Shown here piece after piece: positions 18,062-32,000 of a DNA stretch of 32,000 nucleotides. A program made the translations under genes and the position numbers. The DNA is from Moraxella nasicaprae (lineage in GTDB: Bacteria; Pseudomonadota; Gammaproteobacteria; Pseudomonadales; Moraxellaceae): contig NZ_CP089977.1 in the NCBI RefSeq assembly GCF_025643275.1, positions 2,010,001 through 2,042,000 on the forward strand. The letters are read 5' to 3'. The notes below the pieces were generated by a model. That model was given only the letters and a program-made list of their open reading frames with translations, was not told where the DNA came from and ran no database searches. Every line of letters begins with the position of its first letter. Within the stretch, counting starts at the first letter, position 1.

Positions 18062-20005
18062 TTAAAAGCTCATCCCCAAACTTACACCACTGACCCAATC
18101 TTTGTTTGAAAAACCTGTGGGCTCACTAATTGCTTTTGAGGTGAAAACATCGTAATTAAAACTTAGGTGGGGGTTGTTTGTGTTTGGTGTGTATTGTCCT
18201 TTGATACCTATGGCAGCACCTGCTAGATGTTGTCCAAGCAATAGCTCATTTTGGCTTTTGTCGTGGTTGCTAACATAACCTGCATCCAATCCTAGATAGA
18301 TGGCATGGCTAGATTGGCTGTTTTGTGAGTTGTTTTGATTGGTTGTGGTGCTTTGTTTGGTTGTTTGTTGTTGATTTAGAAAGCTTGGATAAAAGCTGAT
18401 ATCTTGTCTTATCAAGATGCCATTATCCGCAGATAATGAACGCTCTCCATCAAAACCTCTGACGGTGTATCTGCCACCAATCGCCATTTTTAAATCTGGT
18501 GTTAGACTGTCAGTGGCGTATTGGGCTTTGAGTGTGGTGCTGTGGACAACGGGTAGTGGCTTATTTCTTATGATTGGATTGTATCTACTGGTTAGACCCA
18601 AGGTTAGCTGATAGATACCAACACGAGATGAGCCTTCATCAAACAGCTCTTCTGGCGATGGCAAGGCATTAAAAGCGGCGGTACCACGTTTATAAGAAAT
18701 ATCGGTGCTTAGGCTATGATTGGCTTGTTTGCCAAAAGCGGTCTCATGGCTAATGCCAAATAAATAACCTGCAGTTTTACGGGTTTGCACATCAATGGTC
18801 GTACCATCAATATCACTTTCTTGGGATTTGATATAGCCGCTAGTATATACATGGCTTTTACTGCGAGCATCTCTATGCACCAGATGAGATAATTTGGCGG
18901 TATATTGATTGGACTTACCGCCATAGACATAATCTTGGTTACTACCCGCCACAGTTTGATGGTAGGTGTAGTGATTGGCGTTGAGTTGTAATAAGCTGTT
19001 TTTAATGGGAATAACATAACCCATACTGTAATTCTTAGAGCCTTTGCTCTTATCAGACGGATAGTCTTTGTCATCATTGATTTGATTACCCAAATCTCGC
19101 CCAAAGCTAAGATAGAATAAATCATTATAGTTTGCCAGATTATCTAGGCTAAGTGTCGCCATGCCTTGATATTTGCCTGTGGATTTAGAGCCTGAATCAT
19201 CAATGCTTAGACTGCCACGAAGACGGCGGTGTTGGGCATAATCAATTAAAATATCACTAAAGCCAATGCCGTTACCAACAGGTTTATTGTTTTTATCATG
19301 ACCAATTGCTTGCAACCCATCAGATGGTGCAATCTTAAAATTGGCATCAGCACTTGGCACGCGTTTAAAGTTCTCAAGCGTGGTTTCCAAATCACGGATG
19401 TTTAACAGCTTACCTGATTGAGTGGTTAAGGCGGTGTCTAAGATAGCAGGATAAGCCATATTTGTCTGTTTAACATAGACAGGTACTTTACTATCGGCTG
19501 TATTGACCACCACCTGAGCAATCTTACCTGGGATTAAGGTTAATCTTAACTTCCCACCTGCCAAATTCTGATCAGCTACCATAATACGACTGGTGACATA
19601 GCCTTTGTCAATCAAGCGATTTTGCACACGAGTGGCAATGGCATTGATGTCAGCAACTGTCATGCACTTACCTAATACACTGTGATTACCCATGATTTCA
19701 GGCATGAGTGCAAAGCCAAGCTTGTCTGCAAAGATGGCATCATCAGCTGATAACACCGAATAGCTTATCTGATGAATATCAAAGCAAATGGCGTTATCTG
19801 CTACGGCTTGTTCTTGGGTTTGGGCAACCATATTGGCAGAAACAGCATCCACCACCACGCTTGGATTTGGCACTAATTGTTCAAGCAATGCCTGATTGCG
19901 AGCATCTTGGGTTTGGATTAGGGTTTGGTTGGCGGTGTTGGCAGAGACGGTGTTATGAACCAAAATTGCAATAATTGTGGTGGCAAGGATTGTTGGTCTA
20001 ATCAT
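18062..20005 (-). CDS. cdiB: Two-partner-secretion outer-membrane transporter (ShlB/FhaC/HecB family, CdiB/TpsB)
   Basis: 647 aa. Signal peptide MIRPTILATTIIAILVHNTVSA. POTRA-type block GKCMTVADINAIATRVQNRLIDKGYVTSRIMVADQNLAGGKLRLTLIPGKI. C-terminal beta-barrel with RYTVRGFDG and a terminal ...GMSF. Adjacent to and divergent from the large exoprotein. Confidence 0.92.
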   Translation of the reverse strand: MIRPTILATTIIAILVHNTVSANTANQTLIQTQDARNQALLEQLVPNPSVVVDAVSANMVAQTQEQAVADNAICFDIHQISYSVLSADDAIFADKLGFALMPEIMGNHSVLGKCMTVADINAIATRVQNRLIDKGYVTSRIMVADQNLAGGKLRLTLIPGKIAQVVVNTADSKVPVYVKQTNMAYPAILDTALTTQSGKLLNIRDLETTLENFKRVPSADANFKIAPSDGLQAIGHDKNNKPVGNGIGFSDILIDYAQHRRLRGSLSIDDSGSKSTGKYQGMATLSLDNLANYNDLFYLSFGRDLGNQINDDKDYPSDKSKGSKNYSMGYVIPIKNSLLQLNANHYTYHQTVAGSNQDYVYGGKSNQYTAKLSHLVHRDARSKSHVYTSGYIKSQESDIDGTTIDVQTRKTAGYLFGISHETAFGKQANHSLSTDISYKRGTAAFNALPSPEELFDEGSSRVGIYQLTLGLTSRYNPIIRNKPLPVVHSTTLKAQYATDSLTPDLKMAIGGRYTVRGFDGERSLSADNGILIRQDISFYPSFLNQQQTTKQSTTTNQNNSQNSQSSHAIYLGLDAGYVSNHDKSQNELLLGQHLAGAAIGIKGQYTPNTNNPHLSFNYDVFTSKAISEPTGFSNKDWVSGVSLGMSF

Positions 20006-20148: not shown

Positions 20149-20334
20149 ATGAACCGCATATATAAAACCGTCTTTAACAAATCCACACAGACTTGGATGG
20201 CGGTTTGTGAATATGCTCGTCGTGTTGGTTGTGGCGGTGCAAGTAGCACCAGCAAATCTGCGGCACGAGGCGTAGCGGGTTCTATTACTTTCTTATCCTT
20301 TGCAGTACTTATGGCTTTACAGTCAGCCCATGCA
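20149..20334 (+). other. Extended signal peptide region (ESPR) plus Sec signal of CdiA
   Basis: The MNRIYK..FNK...W.AV.E.A.R motif is typical of ESPR-bearing TPS/autotransporter proteins. It is followed by the hydrophobic core ITFLSFAVLMALQSAHA, with predicted cleavage after AHA (aa 62). Confidence 0.75.
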
Positions 20335-23300
20335 GGCACCCCCACCACCATCATCGCTGACTCATCTGCCCCTAAAAATCTACAACCCATCATCTTAAAT
20401 ACCGCAAGCGGCATCACCTCTGTGAATATTGCCACCCCCAATGCTCGTGGCTTATCCAATAACCATTACAGCCAGTTTGATGTCGGTAGCACAGGTGCTG
20501 TATTAAATAACAACCGTAAAGCAGTGGGTACCCAAATCGCAGGCTTTGTGGCAGCCAACCCTTTTATGGCTCGTGGCGAAGCCTCTACCATCTTAAACCA
20601 AATCAATTCCAATAATCCAAGTCATTTAAATGGCTTTGTTGAAGTGGCAGGTAAAAAGGCAGATGTCATCATTGCCAATCCCAATGGTCTTATCATCAAT
20701 GGTGCTGGCTTTATCAATGCTGGTAATGTCCATCTGGCAGCAGCAAATGCCCAAGTAAAACAAGGGCAATTATCAGCTTATCAAGTCGGCAATGGTGATA
20801 CTGGCAATATTCAAGTCAATGGCAAATTAAACCTACAAGGCACCGATTATGCTGCTCTCATCGCTAAAACCGCCCAAATCAATGATGAAATTTATGCAGG
20901 AAAACAGCTGGATGTTATCCTAGGTGAAAACCAAGTCAATCTTCAAAACGGTGATTTTACCAAGCTTAATGCCACCAATAAACAAACCCATGTATCATCT
21001 GCTAGCCAAACCACCAATAAAGAACAACAAGGCGTTGCCTTAGATATTTCATCATTGGGCGGAATGTATGCAGGTAAAATCCACCTTGTCGGTACAGACA
21101 AAGGCTTTGGGGTCAATAACCAAGGGGTCATCACAGCAACCGGCAATGGACAACAACTTGGCACAGGTACACTCACGCTAGATAGTCAAGGCAATCTTGT
21201 CAATACAGGCACCATGTCTGCTAAAGATAAACTTGCCATCAACACCCATGATAACACCACTCAAAACGATGGCACCTTGTTAAGTGAACAAGCTGATATC
21301 GCCATCAATACCGCAAGTCTTAATAACACAGGTGCCATTCACAGCACCCAAACCACCAAGATTGCAGCCAAACAAGCGATTGAAAACCTTGGCAGTGTCT
21401 ATGGCGGTGTTTTGCAAGTGGATACGGATAAGCTTAATAACACCGGCCAGCTTATCCAAACTGGTACAGGTAAGCTTGATATCACCACCAATACACTGAC
21501 CAACTCCGATAAAGCGGTTATCGGTCAAAGCTTGTATGGACAAACCATCATACCCACACCTTCTACCCCAAGCAGCGATCAAAGTGCTGGTAGCATTAGC
21601 AATACTCCTATACAGACAAGCACAACAACAGGTAATATCGCCACAAACCCAAATACGCAGACTTTAAACAAACCATCCACCCCAAACGCTAACGGTCATA
21701 TTACTGCCAGTCAGTCTTTGACTAACACAGGCAATCAAGCACTCATCACTGCCACAGGTGACATCAGCATCAATGCTGATAAAACCCATAACACCAAGCA
21801 AGCATCGATTGATGCCGCCACTTTAAACACCAACACTCTTGTCAATACCGACAGTAAAATCGCCTTAGATGATATTAATTGGCAATTGACTCGCTTTGAT
21901 AACAGCAAAGGTAGTATCACTGCCAAAGATGGTATGGTGATTGGCAGTGAATCTGCCATCATCAACACAGGTGGCAGCTTAACAAGCGGTGGCGATATGA
22001 CACTTATCGCCAAAGACAGGATTATCAATCAAGACGGCACCATTACCGCGGTCAAACAAGCAGATATTACTGCCAAAGAGGTGCAAAACGGCGGCAGCAT
22101 CACGGCTGATACACTTACCATCACCCAACAAGCCGACTACGCCCACACAGATCAAGATAAGCTTGTTGCCAATCGCTTAGCGTTTACAACAAGTGGTAAG
22201 CTGATTAACCAAAGCCAATTAACCGCAGGTCATGATTTGACACTGAACGCCAAACACATTGACAACAGCCAAACAGGTATCATCACCAGCGGCAATCACA
22301 CACAGATTACTAGCCAAACAAACATCACCAACCAAGGCTTAATCAATGGTGAAAATACACTCATCAAAGCCAAAAACACCATCAACAATCTTGCCGGTGG
22401 TCGTATCTATGGCACGCATCTTGCAATACAGGCTGATACGCTAAATAATACGCCAGCAAAAGCTGTCAACCAACAAACCAATCAAGAAAATGACCATCAC
22501 ACCGCCCCTGTCATCGCAGCCAGAGGGCGTCTGGATATCGGTGTTAATCACTTAAACAACAACCCCAATCCAGATAGAGCAGGTAAATTTAATAAAAACT
22601 TTGACAGTCAAGCTTTAATCACAAGTCTTGGCAGTCTGCACATCGGTGGTAGCCTAGATGACAACCATCACGCCACAGGCAAAGCACAGACGGTTATCAA
22701 TAAAGGGGCAACCATAGAGTCTGGTGGACAGATGCAAATTGCCACCAGCACCTTACTAAATACCAATGCCGACTTTAAAAAGCATACGGTCAAAGTGGAA
22801 GCCGAATCCGTTTATGGACAAACACTTTACCGCAACCGTGAGCAATCTGGAGTGCCTGCCACCCAAAAAAGCACCAACATAGCCGATTTGGGCAAAAAGC
22901 CCATGGCAGGTTTATTTGACTGCCCTAAAGGCAGTGAATGTATTGTCAATTATGATCACAACTCCACCATTTGGTCATACTTTAAGATTGAACCACCCAA
23001 ACAGCCTGTTCCAAACATCAAAGCCAAAGACCTGTTAGATGAACCTGACTTACCAAAAGGCGAGACCACTCAAAGCTGTGCCTTGGCGGGTGCAAACAAT
23101 CAAGCCTGTGCCCAATACAACAAAGATCTGGCGAATTACACCAAGGTCATGGGGCCATTATTAAAATGGGAAGAAGATAATGCTGCCTCCATTGAGGCAC
23201 TGGAGCTTGCCATTCGGGAGCATAACCGCCAATTTAATAAAAATAAAAGCGATGTGGATTTGGCGTTAAACATCTACACCACCGATGAAGCATATTTAGG

Positions 23301-26300
23301 TCCAACCAGCCGTAAAGGTGCACCAGATGGTGCTTTGTATGTCAAAGATGTCAGTGGTAACTTTTATCGCCTCACTGAAGAGGTGGATGTCATTACCACT
23401 GACTTTGTCGTCTATGAAGATAAAACTCTATCTTCTGACCCTGCTCGTATGGTATCAGGAGAAAATCTTATCATCCATGGCGACACCTTAATTAACGATA
23501 AAAGCCAAATGAATGCGGGTAATGGCTTTGCAATCATTGGTGATACCGTGATTCAAACACCTGACAATGGCTTGCATGGTGAAAAAACCAAAGTCACCGA
23601 AAATGGTCGCTTTACCAGATATAGCGTATTTGCCTCAGGAATTAACCGCCACAAGCGCAAAGCAACTGGCGGTGGTAGCTTTACTCAATCCTTTGCACCA
23701 CTAGCAACGTATGAACTTCCCATCTTAAACGCTACCATCAATACCACACCAAGTAGCACCAAGATTGATGAGCTAGCCACAGGCAATGATACTTCTGTGA
23801 TTGTTGATGTTAAAGACAGTACCATCACCTTACCAACTTCAGCCCTCTACATCATCAACGCTGACAATCCCAATCTACCACTAATTCAAACCGACCCTGC
23901 ATTCACCAATTACAAACAGTGGCTCTCCTCTGATTATATGCTAAAAGCCCTACAATCAGACCCAAATCACATCCACAAACGCCTCTCTGATGGTTATGGT
24001 GAACAACAGCGTATTAAAGATCAGTACTATCTACTGACAGGCAGACACATCAACACTGATTACCGCAGTCATGAAGATGCTTATAAAACCTTGATGGATA
24101 ATGGCATCACGGCAGCCAAACAGTTTAACTACACACTTGGCACGGCACTCACGCCTGAGCAGATGGCAACTCTCACCACGGACATCGTTTGGCTTATCAA
24201 ACAGCCCATCACGGTTGTCACCAAAGACAAAGATGGCAATAGCATCAGCAAAACCCAAGACGCCTTAGTGCCTAAGCTGTATCTGCGTTCTGCCAATGCA
24301 GATACTGGCACACTGAGTCCTGATGGCAGATACAGTGCCGTCTCAGCCAGAAGCATTGACATGCAGCTGACTGGCAATCTTGACAATAATGGCAACATCA
24401 TTGCCAAAGACACCGCAAACATCAATGCAAACAATGTCACCAATGACGGCGGTGTTTATGGTAACTTTGTCGCTGTCACAGCAGATAACACCATTGCCAA
24501 TCATGGCACCATGTATGCAAACAGTGCCATGAGGCTAAGTGCTGGCAATAACATCATCAACCAAAGCCAAACAGCTACCCATCACAATAAACAAGGGCAA
24601 AGCGCTTCATCTAACACCGCCATCACACGCATCGCCACCATCCGTGTAAGCGATGGATTAAAAGACCAAACAGATGACAATGGCAATCCATTAACCACCC
24701 TAAGTCTGCGTGGCAATCAGATCATCTATCAAGGTGCCGCATCAGACAACGCAGGTGGTAGTACCCACATGACCGCCAAAAACGGCATTAACATCACCAC
24801 CATCACCACAAGCAATCACATCAATGCTGTCGCTGATGAGAATAACTACTTTAACTACAGCCAAAGCACCGATGTGGGTTCAACCATCACCAGTCATGGC
24901 AACTTAACGATAGCCACAACAGGCAAAGATGCTGACATCAACATCAAAGGTTCAAGCCTACAATCAGACGGCATGACTGCTGTTATTGGGACAGGCGACA
25001 TTAGCATCACCGAAGGTCGTGCTACCCAAAGCTTGGATACAGCAAGTAAATTTACCAACAAAGGACTTGTTAGCAAAAAAACCACTCAAACCGCCTATCA
25101 GATGGACAGCAATACCAGCATTCAAAGTACGGTGGGTGGTGAGACTGTACTGATGAAATCAGGTAGGAATATGCAGGTTGTGACAACCAATGTACTTGCC
25201 GACAAAGACATTCTGCTTGCCTCAGGTGGCAATATGACCATTGCCAGTGCTGCTAATACACAAAGTATGCACGAATATTCACAGGTGGATAAAAAAGGCT
25301 TATTTACCACTTCGCCAACTTCTGCCACATTGGGTAAACAACGCACTCAAAATCAAGCAGATGCCATGCAGACCACCTATACAGGCTCGCTGATTGGTAC
25401 TACAGGAGGTAATGTTCGCCTAGTAAGTAATGACAGTCTTGCCATCACCAATAGCGATGTCATTGCCAAAAAAGATGGTGCCAACACCAATACAGGCAAT
25501 ATCTACATCCAAGCCACTGATGCCACCATCCAAAGCCAAAACACCATCAGCAACAACAGCCATCGCTTTGCCCAAAAAACCACAGGAGTGACTGCCAGCG
25601 TCTCTAGCAGTCTTGTTAGCGAGGTTCAAAGCCTAGAAACGCTAAAAGAGTCTGTTAATGACACCGACTCTCGCAAAGCTAAATTGGCTGGCACTTTAGC
25701 GGCAGCTTCCAAGGTTAAAACGCTTATCAATAACCTAAACAATAAAGACTTGGGTAGTCTAAGGGCTCAAGCCACTATTGGCTCACAAAGCACCAAGAGC
25801 CAAACCACAAGCCATCAAGAAACTAATGATGCTGCTAACCTTTTGGCTCAAAATAATCTGATCGTCAACCTTAAAGGCAAAGGTGCGGATTCGGATTTGA
25901 CTGTCATAGGTAGCAATCTTACAGTGGGCAACAACTTCTACCAATCGGTAGAAGGCGATGTCATCTACCAGGCCTCAACACAAACTGATACCACAAACAG
26001 CCAAAACAGCAGTAAAGGTTGGGGCGTGGGTATCTATGCCAGCACTCAGATAGGTGGTGGTCAATCCAATCACGGCTTTACCATCAATGCCAACAAAGCA
26101 AAAGGCAATAGTACTGAAACAACCACCACCCACACCAATACCCAAGTCACTGTTGGCGGTACAACCATCAATGACATTGGTGGCAATCTTATCCTAGATG
26201 GTGCCAATCTTGATACCAAGCACCTAACTGGTACAGTTGGCGGTGATTTGATTGTCAAAAGCCGTCAAGACACCTATCAATACACCCATGATCAAAAACA

Positions 26301-28035
26301 AGCAGGATTTAGTGCCGATGTTGGCTTTAATGGCAAACCCCAAAGCATAAGCATCAATGGTGGTAAAACCGATGTAGATGCCGATTATGCCCAAGTCACC
26401 CGCCAATCAGGCATCAAAGCCAAAGAGTCCACCCTAATCGTACAAGGACAAGGTAAGTTTACTGGTGGCTATCTCATCACCGATGCCGGTAAAAACCAAA
26501 CCCAGTTTGCCCAAGGTATCCAAACCCAAGACATTCACAACCATCTAGATTATGAAGGTGATGCCATCAGTGTCGGCATTGGTATTGGTGTAGACACCAG
26601 CAATCCAAATGGCAAAGCAAAACCTGCCCTACAAGGCCTAGGCTATGGTAAAATAGACCCAACTCATAAAACCAGTACCACCCATTCTGCCATCACAGAC
26701 CAAGCAGGGCTTAGCCATATTAATACAGACAACTTCAAACAAGCAGAAGTTCAACATGAGCTTAACCAAATCATCACCAATGATTTTAATAAAGAGCAAG
26801 TGCTTAAAGAGTTAAATGCTCAGGTGAATATTACTACTGAGTTTGGGAGAGAAGCTCCAAAAAGAGTGGCGGAGTTTGCCGACAACCAAGCCTTTAAACT
26901 TATTCAAAAGCTAGATGAACTTAATGATAAAAACATTGACATTGCTTCTGATGAGTATCAAAATACCATCAAAGAGATTGATAAGTGGAGCGAAGGTGGG
27001 GTTTATCGTGTGGCGTTGCATACGGCTGTTGGTGCTTTGGGGACAGGCACTATCGAAGGAGCAATATCAGCAGGTGCAACCGCCTACACCATTCCAAAGA
27101 TAGACGAATACCTAAAAGAACAAGGCTTTGATGAAACCACAAGACAAACCGCCTTGCTTACCTTATCAGCAGGCATTGGTGCGACTGTTGGTGGCGATAC
27201 TGCAAGCACTGCCAATAATGCTGGGCAGGTGCAGTGGAATTATTTGAGTCATAAGGAGAACGAAAGATTGAGAGAATTAAAAAAAGAGAAAGCTGGACTA
27301 TCTAACGCCTACGGCAATTGTGTATCTCAAAGATGTGCAGAAATTACACGAGAAATAAAAGTGCTTGAAGATCTCAGTAAACAACGAGATAAGGCGTTTG
27401 ATAAAGCTTATACAGACTGCCGTGCAGGCAAGGATTGTAATCAGTTTTATTATTTGCATGTCATTCAAAGAAGAGACTGGAATAAGGATGCAGAAGAATT
27501 ATTTAAGGTAAATCGCAGTGATTGGAAGCTGATGGAGGATTATCAAAATGCCTTTCACAACTACAATGCAAATGGCATTCCAGAAAAATTACCTAATGGT
27601 AACTACCGATACAAAAAATTTGTTCACAATAACGGGCAAATGGAAATAATTATTGATACAAAAGACGGTATTTTAAGTGATGATGACTACACTAGAATTG
27701 TAAGAGATCCAACCAATGCTGGAACATTTAATTATTACGCCCCCAGTGATGCTAGTGGTCATAAATTATATGATGTAGATCCGTATACAAACTTTGGGAA
27801 TGGTAAGGGCGACAAAACAACTCTATCAAACAGAAAAAATGTCATGCTACGCCTACCAGTCCCCTATACAAATTACACAGTTCCAATTGGAACTTCTGGT
27901 TTTTGGACAGGAAATCTACCAGGAAAAACCACAAACCCAAAAACAATGGGGGCAAATAGAATAACAAATAATGCCGAACGTAGCTTTAACGCATCACAAG
28001 ATTTTTGTGAGAATAATAAGGAGGATTGCAAATGA
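20149..28035 (+). CDS. cdiA: CdiA/TpsA filamentous-hemagglutinin-type exoprotein with a C-terminal polymorphic toxin (2628 aa)
   Basis: Extended signal peptide MNRIYKTVFNKSTQTWMAVCEYARR...ALQSAHA. The TPS domain has NNHYSQFDV and ANPNGLIING (NPNG at 20677-20688). Long FHA-type beta-helix repeats follow. A conserved central block reads HKRLSDGYGEQQRIKDQYYLLTG...LTTDIVWL...VPKLYL. The pretoxin region ends in VQWN (27229-27240), followed by a 264-aa variable C-terminus. Confidence 0.95.
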   Translation: MNRIYKTVFNKSTQTWMAVCEYARRVGCGGASSTSKSAARGVAGSITFLSFAVLMALQSAHAGTPTTIIADSSAPKNLQPIILNTASGITSVNIATPNARGLSNNHYSQFDVGSTGAVLNNNRKAVGTQIAGFVAANPFMARGEASTILNQINSNNPSHLNGFVEVAGKKADVIIANPNGLIINGAGFINAGNVHLAAANAQVKQGQLSAYQVGNGDTGNIQVNGKLNLQGTDYAALIAKTAQINDEIYAGKQLDVILGENQVNLQNGDFTKLNATNKQTHVSSASQTTNKEQQGVALDISSLGGMYAGKIHLVGTDKGFGVNNQGVITATGNGQQLGTGTLTLDSQGNLVNTGTMSAKDKLAINTHDNTTQNDGTLLSEQADIAINTASLNNTGAIHSTQTTKIAAKQAIENLGSVYGGVLQVDTDKLNNTGQLIQTGTGKLDITTNTLTNSDKAVIGQSLYGQTIIPTPSTPSSDQSAGSISNTPIQTSTTTGNIATNPNTQTLNKPSTPNANGHITASQSLTNTGNQALITATGDISINADKTHNTKQASIDAATLNTNTLVNTDSKIALDDINWQLTRFDNSKGSITAKDGMVIGSESAIINTGGSLTSGGDMTLIAKDRIINQDGTITAVKQADITAKEVQNGGSITADTLTITQQADYAHTDQDKLVANRLAFTTSGKLINQSQLTAGHDLTLNAKHIDNSQTGIITSGNHTQITSQTNITNQGLINGENTLIKAKNTINNLAGGRIYGTHLAIQADTLNNTPAKAVNQQTNQENDHHTAPVIAARGRLDIGVNHLNNNPNPDRAGKFNKNFDSQALITSLGSLHIGGSLDDNHHATGKAQTVINKGATIESGGQMQIATSTLLNTNADFKKHTVKVEAESVYGQTLYRNREQSGVPATQKSTNIADLGKKPMAGLFDCPKGSECIVNYDHNSTIWSYFKIEPPKQPVPNIKAKDLLDEPDLPKGETTQSCALAGANNQACAQYNKDLANYTKVMGPLLKWEEDNAASIEALELAIREHNRQFNKNKSDVDLALNIYTTDEAYLGPTSRKGAPDGALYVKDVSGNFYRLTEEVDVITTDFVVYEDKTLSSDPARMVSGENLIIHGDTLINDKSQMNAGNGFAIIGDTVIQTPDNGLHGEKTKVTENGRFTRYSVFASGINRHKRKATGGGSFTQSFAPLATYELPILNATINTTPSSTKIDELATGNDTSVIVDVKDSTITLPTSALYIINADNPNLPLIQTDPAFTNYKQWLSSDYMLKALQSDPNHIHKRLSDGYGEQQRIKDQYYLLTGRHINTDYRSHEDAYKTLMDNGITAAKQFNYTLGTALTPEQMATLTTDIVWLIKQPITVVTKDKDGNSISKTQDALVPKLYLRSANADTGTLSPDGRYSAVSARSIDMQLTGNLDNNGNIIAKDTANINANNVTNDGGVYGNFVAVTADNTIANHGTMYANSAMRLSAGNNIINQSQTATHHNKQGQSASSNTAITRIATIRVSDGLKDQTDDNGNPLTTLSLRGNQIIYQGAASDNAGGSTHMTAKNGINITTITTSNHINAVADENNYFNYSQSTDVGSTITSHGNLTIATTGKDADINIKGSSLQSDGMTAVIGTGDISITEGRATQSLDTASKFTNKGLVSKKTTQTAYQMDSNTSIQSTVGGETVLMKSGRNMQVVTTNVLADKDILLASGGNMTIASAANTQSMHEYSQVDKKGLFTTSPTSATLGKQRTQNQADAMQTTYTGSLIGTTGGNVRLVSNDSLAITNSDVIAKKDGANTNTGNIYIQATDATIQSQNTISNNSHRFAQKTTGVTASVSSSLVSEVQSLETLKESVNDTDSRKAKLAGTLAAASKVKTLINNLNNKDLGSLRAQATIGSQSTKSQTTSHQETNDAANLLAQNNLIVNLKGKGADSDLTVIGSNLTVGNNFYQSVEGDVIYQASTQTDTTNSQNSSKGWGVGIYASTQIGGGQSNHGFTINANKAKGNSTETTTTHTNTQVTVGGTTINDIGGNLILDGANLDTKHLTGTVGGDLIVKSRQDTYQYTHDQKQAGFSADVGFNGKPQSISINGGKTDVDADYAQVTRQSGIKAKESTLIVQGQGKFTGGYLITDAGKNQTQFAQGIQTQDIHNHLDYEGDAISVGIGIGVDTSNPNGKAKPALQGLGYGKIDPTHKTSTTHSAITDQAGLSHINTDNFKQAEVQHELNQIITNDFNKEQVLKELNAQVNITTEFGREAPKRVAEFADNQAFKLIQKLDELNDKNIDIASDEYQNTIKEIDKWSEGGVYRVALHTAVGALGTGTIEGAISAGATAYTIPKIDEYLKEQGFDETTRQTALLTLSAGIGATVGGDTASTANNAGQVQWNYLSHKENERLRELKKEKAGLSNAYGNCVSQRCAEITREIKVLEDLSKQRDKAFDKAYTDCRAGKDCNQFYYLHVIQRRDWNKDAEELFKVNRSDWKLMEDYQNAFHNYNANGIPEKLPNGNYRYKKFVHNNGQMEIIIDTKDGILSDDDYTRIVRDPTNAGTFNYYAPSDASGHKLYDVDPYTNFGNGKGDKTTLSNRKNVMLRLPVPYTNYTVPIGTSGFWTGNLPGKTTNPKTMGANRITNNAERSFNASQDFCENNKEDCK
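25990..26835 (+). repeat. Direct repeat copy 1 (846 bp), inside cdiA
   Basis: Matches 29384-30229 at an offset of 3394 bp. The encoded 282 aa are identical in both supplied translations. The antisense track ORFs 26070..26258 / 29464..29652 and 26224..26406 / 29618..29800 are also identical. Identity starts at a25990/a29384 (the preceding bases t and c differ) and ends at t26835/t30229 (the next bases a and c differ). Confidence 0.95.
27241..28032 (+). other. CdiA-CT toxin region of the primary cdiA (264 aa after VQWN); no family assigned
   Basis: Begins YLSHKENERLRELKKEK, immediately after the VQWN motif that occupies the VENN position. Contains six Cys (NCVSQRC, TDCRAGKDC, FCENNKEDC). I recognise no catalytic motif. 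Confidence 0.7.
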
Positions 28036-28133
28036 GAAGTAGTAAAGTATTTTTTTTACTAATCTGTATCTTTTTATTTGTTTTGATTGTATATAATATA
28101 TTATCAAATCATGTAATTAGAACTTTTTATTAA
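28032..28133 (+). CDS. Micro-ORF 1: 33-aa single-pass membrane peptide, candidate cognate immunity (cdiI) for the primary toxin
   Basis: The ATG overlaps the cdiA TGA (ATGA at 28032-28035). A strong AAGGAGG Shine-Dalgarno at 28018-28024 sits 7 nt upstream. My translation is MRSSKVFFLLICIFLFVLIVYNILSNHVIRTFY. The ORF is below the 60-aa cutoff of the track. Confidence 0.5.
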   Translation: MRSSKVFFLLICIFLFVLIVYNILSNHVIRTFY

Positions 28134-28156: not shown

Positions 28157-28240
28157 GGAATCAAAATTGCCCATGATTCTTTTGACGAATCTGAAAAATT
28201 ATGTGAAGCAAATAAGAGTAATTGTTATCATGAAAAATAA
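28157..28240 (+). pseudogene. Fossil 3' tail of a homologous cdiA-CT (module 2)
   Basis: My translation GIKIAHDSFDESEKLCEANKSNCYHEK* aligns with the primary toxin tail GANRITNNAERSFNASQDFCENNKEDCK* (A-x2-SF-x2-S-x3-CE-x-NK-x2-C). There is a stop immediately upstream and no start codon. Confidence 0.6.
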
Positions 28241-28343
28241 TTTATTTTTTATTTTTTTGTTTTTTGTTTTTATTCTGTTAATTATTTTTTCAAAGACTAT
28301 TATTGCTTATTTCTTAGTTTCATTTGGGTATGTTACTGTTTGA
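28230..28343 (+). CDS. Micro-ORF 2: 37-aa single-pass membrane peptide (orphan immunity candidate)
   Basis: The ATG at 28230 overlaps the end of fossil tail 2, the same arrangement as micro-ORF 1 with cdiA. My translation is MKNNLFFIFLFFVFILLIIFSKTIIAYFLVSFGYVTV. The Shine-Dalgarno is weak. Confidence 0.4.
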   Translation: MKNNLFFIFLFFVFILLIIFSKTIIAYFLVSFGYVTV

Positions 28344-28405: not shown

Positions 28406-28546
28406 ATTTTATCAAAAACAGGAAAACCGCAGGCAATAGGGGCGGGTAGAATTATTAGTGAAAAATAAGACAAGCTAAAAAATAAGTTTGATAAGTCTCA
28501 AAAAATTTGTGAGAATGATTATGTTCGATGTGAAGAAAATGATTAG
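28406..28546 (+). pseudogene. Fossil 3' tail of a homologous cdiA-CT (module 3), with an internal stop
   Basis: My translation ILSKTGKPQAIGAGRIISEK*DKLKNKFDKSQKICENDYVRCEEND* aligns with the primary tail PGKTTNPKTMGANRITNNAERSFNASQDFCENNKEDCK*. There is an in-frame TAA at 28466-28468. Confidence 0.6.
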
Positions 28547-28637
28547 ATATTTTTGCATTGCTTTTGCAATCGGTGGGGTTTTATGGATCATACTTTACTC
28601 TTTAGCTGTGATAGGATTACTACATAGCAACTTATGA
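28539..28637 (+). CDS. Micro-ORF 3: 32-aa single-pass membrane peptide (40 aa if started at 28515), orphan immunity candidate
   Basis: The ATG at 28539 overlaps the end of fossil tail 3. My translation is MIRYFCIAFAIGGVLWIILYSLAVIGLLHSNL. In-frame upstream ATGs lie at 28515 and 28521. Its TGA overlaps the ATG of the next ORF (ATGA at 28634-28637). Confidence 0.4.
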   Translation: MIRYFCIAFAIGGVLWIILYSLAVIGLLHSNL

Positions 28638-29140
28638 ATAATCTTGGGTCTCTAGCACGGAAGAAAATTGGGAAGATGCTAATGAGAATTAGGATAAGAA
28701 GATTTATTCTTATAACAGCCATACTAATTATTCCCAGTTATTATCTGCTAAGCATGTATACCAGAGGATTGGATATAAGAAAGGATTCTATTTTGGGTGA
28801 AGCAATAGCGGATATCCCTTTCAAATATAATCCATCTAGGAATCTAGCAGTAACTCAATCAATTTCCATAAAAAATGGCAAATTGGTACATTATGTATAT
28901 ATTTTCAAATTTCATGGTGTATTTTATAATAAGAAACTTATTTTCAGCTTCAAGGGGGATGCTACATGCGGTGATTATAATTCAGAAAATGTTAATTCAT
29001 GGATAAATTGGCATGGTGATAGCAAATTAAAAATCAATATTAACAGCAATACGTTACAGAAAGTGTTAATAAAGGAAGAGAATTATGATAATGTTCAAAT
29101 TGATTACTTATATTATTTCGAATCCTGTAATAGGATATAG
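28634..29140 (+). CDS. Hypothetical membrane-anchored protein (168 aa), possible orphan immunity or accessory protein
   Basis: Track ORF. Basic N-terminus, one TM helix (RRFILITAILIIPSYYLLSMY), then a roughly 120-aa N/K/I/Y-rich domain. Extremely AT-rich and coupled by ATGA to micro-ORF 3. I recognise no family. Confidence 0.55.
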   Translation: MNNLGSLARKKIGKMLMRIRIRRFILITAILIIPSYYLLSMYTRGLDIRKDSILGEAIADIPFKYNPSRNLAVTQSISIKNGKLVHYVYIFKFHGVFYNKKLIFSFKGDATCGDYNSENVNSWINWHGDSKLKININSNTLQKVLIKEENYDNVQIDYLYYFESCNRI

Positions 29141-29383: not shown

Positions 29384-30229
29384 ACCACAAACAGCCAAAA
29401 CAGCAGTAAAGGTTGGGGCGTGGGTATCTATGCCAGCACTCAGATAGGTGGTGGTCAATCCAATCACGGCTTTACCATCAATGCCAACAAAGCAAAAGGC
29501 AATAGTACTGAAACAACCACCACCCACACCAATACCCAAGTCACTGTTGGCGGTACAACCATCAATGACATTGGTGGCAATCTTATCCTAGATGGTGCCA
29601 ATCTTGATACCAAGCACCTAACTGGTACAGTTGGCGGTGATTTGATTGTCAAAAGCCGTCAAGACACCTATCAATACACCCATGATCAAAAACAAGCAGG
29701 ATTTAGTGCCGATGTTGGCTTTAATGGCAAACCCCAAAGCATAAGCATCAATGGTGGTAAAACCGATGTAGATGCCGATTATGCCCAAGTCACCCGCCAA
29801 TCAGGCATCAAAGCCAAAGAGTCCACCCTAATCGTACAAGGACAAGGTAAGTTTACTGGTGGCTATCTCATCACCGATGCCGGTAAAAACCAAACCCAGT
29901 TTGCCCAAGGTATCCAAACCCAAGACATTCACAACCATCTAGATTATGAAGGTGATGCCATCAGTGTCGGCATTGGTATTGGTGTAGACACCAGCAATCC
30001 AAATGGCAAAGCAAAACCTGCCCTACAAGGCCTAGGCTATGGTAAAATAGACCCAACTCATAAAACCAGTACCACCCATTCTGCCATCACAGACCAAGCA
30101 GGGCTTAGCCATATTAATACAGACAACTTCAAACAAGCAGAAGTTCAACATGAGCTTAACCAAATCATCACCAATGATTTTAATAAAGAGCAAGTGCTTA
30201 AAGAGTTAAATGCTCAGGTGAATATTACT
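29384..30229 (+). repeat. Direct repeat copy 2 (846 bp), the 5' part of the orphan cdiA-CT
   Basis: See copy 1 (25990-26835). Confidence 0.95.
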
Positions 30230-31483
30230 CAAGCATTTGATGCTGAACGCCGTGCCATTAGAAGTGAATTTGCTAAAAAAGCAGAAGACCATCGCAAACA
30301 AGCAGAAAGGCTATCAGATGACGACCCAAGAAAGACAGAGCTTGTACAAGAGGCCCAAAAGATTGAACAAAACCTAAGACTCTTCGATGGCATCACCTCT
30401 GCCTTGTATGCTCCTAATTCAAATGGTATTATAGGTGATGTGGCAAGAGCAGCAAGCCCAGAGCTTGCTTATCGGATTGGTCAAGAATTTAAAGAAAACA
30501 AAGCCCTAAACCAAACAGACAATGGTAACAGACCAGAAGAGCAATCAGCCAATCATCTACTGGCTCATGCCATACTTGGTGCTGCCACAAGCTATGCCAC
30601 AGGTAATGACATCGCCACAGGTGCCGTCTCTGCGGTAAGCAATGAGGCTGTCGCCCCAGTATTGTCAAATTACCTATATGGCACCAAAGAAACAAAAACA
30701 CTTAGCCAAGAACAAAAAGACACCATCACAAGCATTCTAAACCTAGCCACTGCTACAACCATCTACACAGCAACTGATGGCAGCACCACTGATGCAGTAA
30801 GTGGGGCTGAGATTGGGAAGGTTGGGGTGGAGTGGAATGCGGATACTATACGTCTAGATGGCAAAGATGCTCATGATAGAGTATTTGAAGCAGAAGCTAA
30901 ACGATTGTTTCCTAATAATCCTGAGTTGCAGCAGCAATATATTGCTCAACAAAATAAAAAAATTGGTGAAATTAGTTTAGCAATCATAATGACCGCTGTG
31001 CCAACCGAAATTTATGAGGTTGCACCAATCGGCAAAGGGTTTGGTATTATTGCAAAGGGAAGCAAGAAAGTTGTTGGTCTTTTTAAGAGCAAAGGAGATG
31101 CTGAAAAGGTATTGGAAGGAGCCAAGAAGCAATCTAAAGCTGATAACAACATATATAGAGATGATAGTTATGGCTATACTTGGTCGCAAGGAAGACCGCG
31201 AGATTTTAATCGAAATTTAGCCACTCACTGGAATAAGCATAAGCATGAATTTCCCGAGTTTCGGTCTCAAAACGATTATTATAGATTTGCAAGAAATTTT
31301 GTTGACAATCCTCCTGCTGGAACTCTAACTAAGGTTAGAGCTAATGGAGATATGGTATTTTATCAACCGTCAACAAATACTTTTGCTATCAAGGATAAAA
31401 GTGGTAGCATTATGACGCTATTTAAACCTGATGTTACAAAACATAAGTATGCTACAAATTTGGAGTATTTTCATGCACAATAG
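29420..31483 (+). CDS. cdiA: Orphan cdiA-CT: 5'-truncated CdiA C-terminal fragment carrying an alternative pretoxin region and toxin
   Basis: The frame is open from 29348 (stop at 29345-29347) with no credible start or RBS, no signal peptide and no TPS domain. The track start at 29420 is an internal GTG. The first 282 aa are identical to CdiA aa 1948-2229. The sequence then diverges (QAFDAERRAIRSEF...), reaches a DUF637/PT-like region (ANHLLAHAILGAATSYATG...) ending in VEWN (30827-30838), and finishes with a 214-aa distinct C-terminus. Confidence 0.85.
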   Translation: MGIYASTQIGGGQSNHGFTINANKAKGNSTETTTTHTNTQVTVGGTTINDIGGNLILDGANLDTKHLTGTVGGDLIVKSRQDTYQYTHDQKQAGFSADVGFNGKPQSISINGGKTDVDADYAQVTRQSGIKAKESTLIVQGQGKFTGGYLITDAGKNQTQFAQGIQTQDIHNHLDYEGDAISVGIGIGVDTSNPNGKAKPALQGLGYGKIDPTHKTSTTHSAITDQAGLSHINTDNFKQAEVQHELNQIITNDFNKEQVLKELNAQVNITQAFDAERRAIRSEFAKKAEDHRKQAERLSDDDPRKTELVQEAQKIEQNLRLFDGITSALYAPNSNGIIGDVARAASPELAYRIGQEFKENKALNQTDNGNRPEEQSANHLLAHAILGAATSYATGNDIATGAVSAVSNEAVAPVLSNYLYGTKETKTLSQEQKDTITSILNLATATTIYTATDGSTTDAVSGAEIGKVGVEWNADTIRLDGKDAHDRVFEAEAKRLFPNNPELQQQYIAQQNKKIGEISLAIIMTAVPTEIYEVAPIGKGFGIIAKGSKKVVGLFKSKGDAEKVLEGAKKQSKADNNIYRDDSYGYTWSQGRPRDFNRNLATHWNKHKHEFPEFRSQNDYYRFARNFVDNPPAGTLTKVRANGDMVFYQPSTNTFAIKDKSGSIMTLFKPDVTKHKYATNLEYFHAQ

Positions 31484-31718
31484 CAATAAATTCAATAGCT
31501 GTAAGATATGTGGTTACTATGAAAGCGGTTGGTTTCCATGGGGTGTTGATGGTAGAACGCCATCTTTTGATATTTGCCCCCAATGTAATGTGCAGTTTGG
31601 CTATGAAGATTGTAACGATGAGGCTATAAAAAGTTATAGAAAAGTTTATGAAGAGATGATTAAATATGACCAAAATAAGAAAAATTTCCATACCTATATC
31701 CATGGATGCTCTAAATAG
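31473..31718 (+). CDS. cdiI: Candidate immunity protein (cdiI) for the orphan toxin; small zinc-ribbon, CPCC-like cysteine-rich protein (81 aa)
   Basis: The ATG at 31473 overlaps the last codons of the orphan cdiA-CT. GGAG at 31462-31465 sits 7 nt upstream. The protein MHNSNKFNSCKICGYYESGWFPWGVDGRTPSFDICPQCNVQFGYEDCND... has a CxxC...CxxC pair. The track start at 31431 is probably over-extended. Confidence 0.65.
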   Translation: MHNSNKFNSCKICGYYESGWFPWGVDGRTPSFDICPQCNVQFGYEDCNDEAIKSYRKVYEEMIKYDQNKKNFHTYIHGCSK

Positions 31719-31792: not shown

Positions 31793-32000
31793 CCCAGCCT
31801 ACGGGCTGAAAAGAAATGTGAAGAACATGTTCAAAAATACGATAAAATTTCTGCAGAGCAAGACGAGGACTTACGTAAAACTTGTTCAAGCAATCCAAAT
31901 AATGTTGAGTGCCATCGTATGATGGAAGAGGCTTTGGAGTATGTGGGACGGAACAGAAATCATTATGGAAAGGCAAGCGATATCCAAGATTCGACCAAAA
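31793..32000 (+). pseudogene. Possible further orphan toxin fragment, open to the window end
   Basis: A frame is open from 31793 to the window end with no start codon at its beginning. My translation is PSLRAEKKCEEHVQKYDKISAEQDEDLRKTCSSNPNNVECHRMMEEALEYVGRNRNHYGKASDIQDSTK. This charged, helical, Cys-paired composition resembles the segment just after VQWN in the primary CdiA-CT (..CVSQRCAEITREIKVLEDLSKQRDKAFDKAYTDCRAGKDC..). Confidence 0.3.

Follow-up and report, generated by a model that had tools for sequence, protein, structure and literature searches.

This report concerns a contact-dependent inhibition (CDI) locus of Moraxella nasicaprae and in particular the C-terminal toxin region (CT) of its CdiA protein. 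The locus lies in a 32,000-nucleotide stretch of contig NZ_CP089977.1 (positions 2,010,001 to 2,042,000), the whole of which is called the window here and supplies all coordinates unless another locus is named. The CT forms part of a polymorphic toxin/immunity pair in which the toxin domain is undescribed and the candidate immunity peptides are unusually small. The genes and features of this pair are as follows.

18062 to 20005, minus strand: cdiB-like TpsB transporter gene with Pfam matches to ShlB (1e-76), POTRA_2 and POTRA_3; annotated as a ShlB/FhaC/HecB family protein
20149 to 28035, plus strand: cdiA, encoding 2628 amino acids (aa) with ESPR, TPS and Fil_haemagg_2 domains; WP_263076298.1, annotated as 'hemagglutinin repeat-containing protein'
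27229 to 27240, plus strand: VQWN pretoxin boundary motif, the equivalent of VENN; similarity to an orphan CT with a different toxin stops just past VQWNYL(S/T)H
27241 to 27510, plus strand: CT module 1 (residues 5-94), DUF6862-like, with Cys pairs C31/C36 and C64/C70, of the entry or membrane-docking type
27511 to 27858, plus strand: CT module 2 (residues 95-210), the alpha/beta toxin core, which contains no Cys and belongs to an unannotated family, delimited by profile search and AlphaFold2
27859 to 28035, plus strand: CT module 3 (residues 211-268 and the stop codon), a variable tail that includes a G-x-aromatic-x-G motif and ends in a C260-x6-C267 loop
28018 to 28024, plus strand: AAGGAGG Shine-Dalgarno site, read from the sequence, 7 nt 5' of the ATG of the immunity peptide
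28032 to 28133, plus strand: candidate cdiI, unannotated, encoding the 33-aa single-pass membrane peptide MRSSKVFFLLICIFLFVLIVYNILSNHVIRTFY; its ATG overlaps the cdiA stop codon (ATGA)

The locus is a normal CDI system accompanied by orphan modules. A TpsB transporter gene of the Omp85/POTRA type adjoins cdiA, whose product combines FHA repeats with a TPS domain and has a polymorphic CT bounded by a pretoxin motif. The two genes diverge from a 143-bp intergenic region, unlike the same-direction order of the usual cdiBAI or bcpAIOB. The VQWN boundary is defined by two orphan CTs from related loci (L006:2053-3066 and L011:1952-2692). Translated, 27229-28035 (268 codons) reads VQWN and then 264 residues up to the stop codon. 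It has the three close Cys pairs that an earlier reading made from the sequence alone (hereafter the sequence-only reading) had reported, and the core string quoted there, which contains no Cys. The same reading took these residues for a single 264-aa domain; alignment of relatives, the structural model and the domain boundaries found by profile search instead divide the CT into three modules. A search of 5.8 billion proteins returned 25 relatives of the CT, mostly orphan CT fragments, and all the named ones are from Moraxella.

The toxin core (module 2) is the most widely distributed part of the CT. A profile of the core searched against 1.84 billion cluster representatives gave 524 matches at E<1e-3, of which 48 were at E<1e-10, and the core is nearly always C-terminal in the proteins that bear it. 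Carriers include CdiA/TPS proteins with PT-VENN or DUF637, RHS proteins and one MafB-N protein. A metagenomic 2960-aa polyprotein of the extracellular contractile injection system (eCIS) type (P0045) has two copies of the core and two eCIS_core (PVC-metallopeptidase) domains, followed by an AHH nuclease and a TNT NADase domain. The core is also found on phage proteins of approximately 200 aa with an N-terminal DUF7211 motif. No Pfam domain covers the toxin region in the CdiA, RHS, MafB, eCIS and phage carriers examined. Among 94 members, and in CT numbering, the nearly invariant residues are H110, K130, E139, N163, G165, T166, Y167, N168, P172, H178, D182, P185, G190, D195 and R202. An AlphaFold2 model built on a 56-sequence alignment is confident (pLDDT 89.9, pTM 0.82) and consists of a short strand, a helix bearing H110, a beta-hairpin with K130 and E139, and a long helix with H178-x3-D182. 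The toxin is hydrophilic, with a maximum 19-residue hydropathy of 0.42 and a mean hydropathy (GRAVY) of about -1.

Phage and prophage loci also contain tandem arrays of two to four DUF7211 proteins (L016 5016-8612, L034 2504-5439, L038 140-3171 and L041 459-2980), which share the N-terminal motif HHGVKGMKWGVRRYQN, differ in their C-terminal domains and adjoin large terminase and portal genes. One array member bears the toxin core of the CT, and no immunity gene is present in the phage DUF7211 loci with the core. These arrays look like a polymorphic effector set that is possibly packaged into the capsid, packaging being suggested by gene position only.

Searches for a known family left the CT unassigned. 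Pfam gives only a sub-threshold match to DUF6862 (PF21726; residues 9-71, 20.8 bits, E 3.9e-4, gathering cut-off 24.1), while NCBIfam, PHROGs and PDB sequence searches of the CT returned no match. No HExxH, HNH or similar motif is present in the CT, and the window core shows no profile match to, or signature of, HNH, PD-(D/E)xK, EndoU, BECR, deaminase, ART or zincin Tox-MPTase enzymes. Scanning 56 members of the core family with Pfam, NCBIfam and PHROGs produced scattered single weak matches only, such as Tox-MPTase4 (1/56, 5e-4) and Tox-GHH (1/56, 0.034). Tox-MPTase4 needs HExxH (PMC3482391), and this identity was discarded because the core family lacks that motif. PDB sequence searches with the whole CT and with the 56-member core profile gave chance matches only, for example to 'GTYNYY' of influenza HA2. 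With the core model as query, Foldseek had no match in PDB (best E 2.3) or in BFVD (best E 0.55), and the full-CT model had no PDB match below E 0.5. Assignments to LAS or M15 peptidases, Amidase_3, PAP2, PLD (HKD) and His-Me finger enzymes were rejected, as the order of conserved residues misfits and fold support is missing. Literature searches for DUF7211 and the motif strings yielded nothing relevant.

These results agree with the sequence-only reading on the absence of HNH, HExxH, PD-(D/E)xK, EndoU and deaminase motifs. They supply the Pfam search, structure prediction and fold search it had proposed, none of which gave a confident match to a cytosolic nuclease or any other characterised toxin. 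Its description of the CT as having 'no recognisable toxin family' is accurate for curated libraries; the 524 representative clusters show, however, that the core is not an orphan.

Module 1 precedes the core as a set of helical hairpins (helices 8-24, 34-65 and 70-94; AlphaFold2 pLDDT about 80-90). It follows a (V/A)xNN(Y/W)L boundary in CdiA-type members of many lineages and is missing from the Rhs, MafB and phage versions of the toxin. It is probably a divergent DUF6862 relative, since the sister CT at L006:2053-3066 scores 38.7 bits against DUF6862 and shares the Cys-pair pattern of the window CT. Its profile found three matches in the 5.8-billion-protein database, too few for a survey of partners, and a local hidden Markov model scan of the fetched loci was used instead. 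In Moraxella, this type of module also precedes a second, unrelated toxin core, itself followed by polytopic membrane open reading frames (ORFs). CdiA-CT entry domains are as a rule alpha-helical, and the majority have one or more Cys pairs (PMC9424206). Module 1 has these features: it is N-terminal, alpha-helical, Cys-paired and modular with respect to the toxin.

The six cysteines of the CT fall at residues 31/36 (NCVSQRC), 64/70 (DCRAGKDC) and 260/267 (FCENNKEDC). When six Cys are placed at random in 268 residues, three pairs with gaps of 7 or less arise in approximately 0.2% of trials. Cys makes up 2.2% of the CT and 0.25% of the remainder of CdiA, so the sequence-only reading's term 'cysteine-rich' holds in a relative sense only. 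The six other Cys of CdiA are likewise closely paired (20/28, 925/931 and 977/987), and pairing is therefore a trait of the entire exported protein. Alignment of homologues shows Cys64/70 to be the sole invariant pair in the Moraxellaceae set; the first pair varies in position, and the terminal pair occurs in 6 of 19 homologues, each time as CExNxxxC. The entry domain of a cytosolic tRNase is also Cys-paired, the disulfide stabilising the domain in the periplasm (PMC9424206). Cys pairs are thus the sign of a delivery module exposed to the periplasm, and alone they do not tell where the toxin acts. The argument from cysteines to an oxidising site of action is weak because two of the pairs sit in a helical module of a type present on most CdiA-CTs, cytosolic tRNases included, and because the third is lineage-specific while the catalytic-looking core is Cys-free.

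Polymorphism is concentrated in the tail (module 3). When compared with Moraxellaceae homologues, the tail is 16-57% identical, the core 43-85% (for the closer tail subtypes A and B, 64-85%) and the N-terminal module 43-80%. Most of the distant homologues have no tail, their match stopping at about profile position 126-131. A cassette boundary near 27910 is common to a Moraxella metagenome-assembled genome (L008), where the tail-plus-peptide cassette has 91% nucleotide identity. The tail motif G-x-aromatic-x-G-(K/E/N)-(L/F) lies at 27898-27924 (residues 224-232), 15-25 residues past the core, and takes forms such as GFWTGNL, KIFGKLP, VIFGELP and KFFGEFK. Every Moraxellaceae tail subtype retains it, as do several distant members of CdiA type, despite the variability of the remainder of the tail.

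Downstream of the toxin, the candidate cdiI encodes a peptide with one predicted transmembrane (TM) helix (19-residue hydropathy 3.08), whose exact 33-aa sequence is not in the protein collection. The same tail-plus-peptide pair occurs in L008 with five conservative changes and a dN/dS of 0.57. Beyond it, the window holds two degenerate cassettes of tail remnant plus peptide (28157-28343 and 28406-28637), with the following parts.

28157 to 28240, plus strand: second tail-type remnant, ending in EKLCEANKSNCYHEK and a stop codon; 82.5% nucleotide identity to the M. cuniculi toxin end in L007
28230 to 28343, plus strand: orphan immunity peptide 2, 37 aa, MKNNLFFIFLFFVFILLIIFSKTIIAYFLVSFGYVTV; a homologue lies directly after the P0005 toxin in L007 (dN/dS 0.30)
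28406 to 28546, plus strand: third tail-type remnant, ending in KICENDYVRCEEND and a stop codon, with an internal stop; 71% nucleotide identity to L011 4593-4817
28539 to 28637, plus strand: orphan immunity peptide 3, 32 aa, MIRYFCIAFAIGGVLWIILYSLAVIGLLHSNL; conserved after the matching tail in L002, L003, L010 and L011

In orphan peptide 3, differences fall at 18 of 76 nonsynonymous and 15 of 20 synonymous sites. Across species, the reading frames of the small ORFs are kept, with pairwise dN/dS of 0.2-0.6. At least seven distinct tail/peptide pairings exist in Moraxellaceae, and each tail subtype has its own downstream membrane ORF.

Tail ending in CEANKDNCNYEK: followed by a 37-aa peptide
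Tail ending in CENNYDLCKKDD: followed by a 32-aa peptide
Tail ending in CENNSEECKIEKKKK: followed by a 30-aa peptide
Tail ending in CETNKEKCK: followed by a 30-aa peptide
Tail ending in CERNRGVCDAK: followed by a 34-aa peptide
Tail ending in RDFEKEKK: followed by a 36-39-aa peptide (Psychrobacter and M. nasovis)
Tail ending in KKLIRSDR: followed by an 89-90-aa protein with three TM helices

The pattern is not confined to Moraxellaceae. All 28 toxin or tail-remnant loci examined, a set that comprises CdiA, Rhs and orphan-remnant types and includes the two remnant cassettes of the window, have a downstream ORF in which one or more TM helices are predicted. It is nearly always the first ORF and starts between -11 and +12 nt from the toxin stop, save in L022 (+267) and L001 (+81). 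Three classes are seen: single-pass peptides of 30-39 aa, polytopic proteins of 65-148 aa and, in two Rhs loci, proteins of 178 and 203 aa with an N-terminal anchor or signal. Of twelve distant metagenomic loci examined, those of CdiA type are followed by polytopic membrane ORFs of 65-122 aa, and in the two Rhs-type loci (L030 and L032; GC 0.51-0.54) the anchor or signal of the 178-aa and 203-aa proteins precedes a soluble domain. A Pfam scan of ten immunity candidates found no known immunity family. Judged from their sequences, the small downstream ORFs are real genes: the one at 28032-28133 has the AAGGAGG site and the ATGA overlap, and the frames are kept across species with dN/dS of 0.2-0.6.

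Taken together, these features favour a soluble hydrolase that would act at the periplasmic face of the inner membrane and be blocked there by a membrane-embedded CdiI, a reading to which we give a probability of roughly 0.5. The target is probably the periplasm or inner membrane rather than cytosolic nucleic acid, because the immunity candidates are membrane-bound or exported family-wide and the toxin is hydrophilic with enzyme-like conserved residues. The sequence-only reading had also proposed a periplasmic or inner-membrane activity; that proposal gains support from the topology of the immunity candidates, while its argument from cysteines does not carry it. The second, unrelated toxin core that follows a DUF6862-type module, with its own downstream polytopic membrane ORFs, points the same way.

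By the established CDI pathway, CdiA would carry the CT into the target periplasm, with cleavage near VQWN. The helical module, putatively held by two disulfides, may stabilise the CT there and would probably dock on an inner-membrane component, without entry into the cytosol. The 115-residue alpha/beta core would be a soluble, cofactor-free enzyme, probably a metal-dependent hydrolase, although the chemistry is a guess. H110, K130, E139, N168, H178-x3-D182, D195 and R202 form a set resembling an active site, and the topology of the immunity candidates would place its work at the periplasmic face of the membrane. The substrate may be an envelope component common to Gram-negative and Gram-positive bacteria, our guesses being a cell-wall precursor linked to a lipid, the head group of a phospholipid, or peptidoglycan. 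The producer would be protected by the 33-residue single-pass peptide, translationally coupled to cdiA and set in the inner membrane, probably N-in/C-out. Since tails and peptides co-vary as cassettes, the peptide is suggested to capture the toxin by its tail.

Several points weigh against a periplasmic hydrolase. The core fold has no match, and the term 'hydrolase' rests solely on the types of residue conserved. TM helices were called by a simple hydropathy window in AT-rich DNA. The peptide has only about 10 exposed residues, which leaves the neutralisation of an enzyme unexplained. The core sits beside AHH nuclease and TNT NADase domains in the eCIS polyprotein, and in phage it occurs in DUF7211 proteins that adjoin terminase and portal genes and have no immunity gene; both contexts hint at cytoplasmic delivery, which is usual there. 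N-terminal helical Cys-pair domains are, moreover, typical of CTs that enter the cytosol (PMC9424206).

The last points lead to the alternative that survives best, in which the core acts as an enzyme toxin in the cytosol, the helical module with its disulfides serves for genuine entry into the cytoplasm and the membrane peptides block translocation, for instance by receptor occupancy or trapping of the CT, rather than catalysis. The standard nuclease CT has an alpha-helical Cys-pair domain ahead of its toxin (PMC9424206), and this alternative stays alive because the eCIS context, where the core accompanies AHH and TNT toxins, and the phage context, where the proteins are likely capsid-packaged, hint at delivery to the cytoplasm. 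We nevertheless consider it unlikely. The immunity peptides co-vary with the C-terminal tail and not with the 43-80% conserved N-terminal module, the Rhs versions lack the helical module and still have exported or anchored immunity proteins, and an immunity gene of cytosolic type lies downstream in 0 of 28 loci.

Less probable again is a core that is not an enzyme at all, and that would bind and block an essential protein of the inner membrane or periplasm, with the conserved His, Asp and Glu forming a structural metal site. Microcins and bacteriocins directed at membrane proteins typically have small TM proteins for immunity, which counts for this proposal, as does the failure of Foldseek to recognise a catalytic fold. 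The same eight polar residues are, however, kept from Gram-negative CdiA to Firmicutes-type Rhs and phage proteins, and such conservation across lineages favours catalysis on a universal substrate over binding of a lineage-specific protein.

It is improbable that the small hydrophobic ORFs are by-products of AT-rich DNA, or have another role, and that the true immunity gene lies elsewhere, for example in the 168-aa ORF at 28634-29140. The regional GC of about 30% would suit this explanation, and the peptides are unannotated and missing from the protein collection. It has to contend with the Shine-Dalgarno site, the start/stop overlap, frames conserved between species with dN/dS below 1, and the same downstream pattern in loci of GC 0.51-0.54. 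The product of the 168-aa ORF has a TM anchor at the N-terminus and a soluble part that contains Cys; neither Pfam nor NCBIfam matches it, and its exact sequence is not in the protein collection. It was discarded as the immunity gene because no homologue was found in the fetched related loci.

The least credible alternative is that the CT depolarises the membrane as an ionophore or pore former like CdiA-CT(EC93), for although a small hydrophobic CdiI is a hallmark of CDI ionophores (PMC11630599) and the tail holds one GxxxGxxxG string (residues 224-232), the CT is hydrophilic and has no hydrophobic helix, the compact, confidently modelled core is alpha/beta rather than a five-helix bundle, and the Gly string (GFWTGNLPG) is polar, Pro-containing, modelled with low confidence and not kept as a zipper in homologues.

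The periplasmic hydrolase can be taken further, in a form that we put forward tentatively. The core may found a new enzyme fold that hydrolyses a universal envelope component (lipid II, undecaprenyl-linked precursors or phospholipid) from the periplasmic side, with membrane immunity proteins of 30-39 aa that recognise a swappable tail and with phages carrying the same enzyme as capsid-delivered DUF7211 cargo. In this form the CT, being neither an ionophore nor an enzyme of the cytosol, would be without precedent among CDI toxins, and its immunity proteins would be the smallest described to date.

Further orphan CT modules lie downstream of the primary pair. The module at 29420-31483 repeats the FHA and pretoxin segment of cdiA, with VEWN at 30827-30838 and a PT-VENN match, and carries a different, 215-aa toxin without a Pfam match. 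An ORF of 95 aa (31431-31718) follows and overlaps it; this ORF has two Cys-x2-Cys pairs, resembling a zinc ribbon, and is annotated as a hypothetical protein of 81 aa. The two together resemble a toxin/immunity pair of cytosolic type, in contrast to the primary pair. The start of a third CT at 31793-31999, cut by the end of the window, encodes a DUF6862-like helical Cys-pair module (containing KKCEEHVQKYDKISAEQDEDLRKTCSSNPNNVECH). This CT belongs to the second toxin type, after which polytopic membrane ORFs also lie in M. sp. ATCC 23246 and further loci (L006 3066-3532, L011 2683-3123).

According to a 2022 review, the characterised CDI toxins are all nucleases save one pore former (PMC9086364), and a later study added a related family of CDI ionophores (PMC11630599). 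If the favoured reading is true, a soluble, enzyme-like CDI toxin with membrane-embedded immunity would represent a third way in which CDI toxins act. It would also define a toxin family that Pfam and NCBIfam at present do not see and that type V secretion systems, Rhs, MafB, eCIS and phages have in common. Annotation systematically misses immunity genes of 30-39 residues, with consequences for the interpretation of orphan toxin/immunity arrays in Moraxella and other bacteria of the respiratory tract. The tail-plus-peptide cassettes offer a compact, testable system for the evolution of toxin/immunity specificity.

The CT stands outside every curated toxin family, the ionophore family and the ColM-like enzymes, and shares partial likenesses with several known systems. 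CDI ionophores fold as hydrophobic bundles of five helices that contain a glycine zipper, and the CdiI proteins that go with them are two-helix hairpins of 72-100 aa (Halvorsen et al. 2024, PMC11630599). Like the EC93-family ionophores, the M. nasicaprae toxin is delivered by CdiA, has an N-terminal helical domain of the entry type followed by a toxin domain, and would probably stay out of the cytosol and act at the inner membrane. The candidate CdiI is likewise small, polymorphic and predicted to be membrane-embedded, and would be specific to its cognate toxin. Neither the five-helix bundle nor a glycine zipper in a hydrophobic helix is found, however. The toxin is hydrophilic, alpha/beta and has enzyme-like residues, the small hydrophobic CdiI is shorter and of another topology (a single helix of 30-39 aa), and no sequence relation to the EC93 ionophores was detected.

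With nuclease CdiA-CTs such as CdiA-CT(EC3006), the CT shares a pretoxin motif, an alpha-helical Cys-pair hairpin domain and a globular alpha/beta toxin (PMC9424206). Unlike these nucleases, which belong to BECR and other folds and have soluble cytosolic immunity proteins, it shows no nuclease signature and is followed by membrane-embedded immunity candidates.

Phages carry polymorphic toxin cargo as MuF-fused toxins, and T4 packages internal proteins by means of a capsid-targeting sequence. The DUF7211 proteins resemble such cargo in their size of about 200 aa, their short N-terminal motif with variable C-terminal domains and their position next to terminase and portal genes. They differ from MuF and T4 cargo in being uncharacterised.

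Rhs and type VI secretion effectors that act in the periplasm, such as amidases and lipases, have exported immunity proteins. The Rhs-borne copies of the core (L030 and L032) are similarly followed by signal or anchor proteins with a soluble domain, although no homology to the Tae, Tge or Tle families was detected. Bacteriocins of the Colicin M type are soluble enzymes that degrade lipid II from the periplasm, and their immunity proteins (Cmi and PmiA) are membrane-anchored or polytopic. Their catalytic motif, DxYD(x5)HR, is absent from the CT and no fold match was found in PDB, so the comparison is one of analogy only; the likeness lies in a putative soluble enzyme guarded from the inner membrane.

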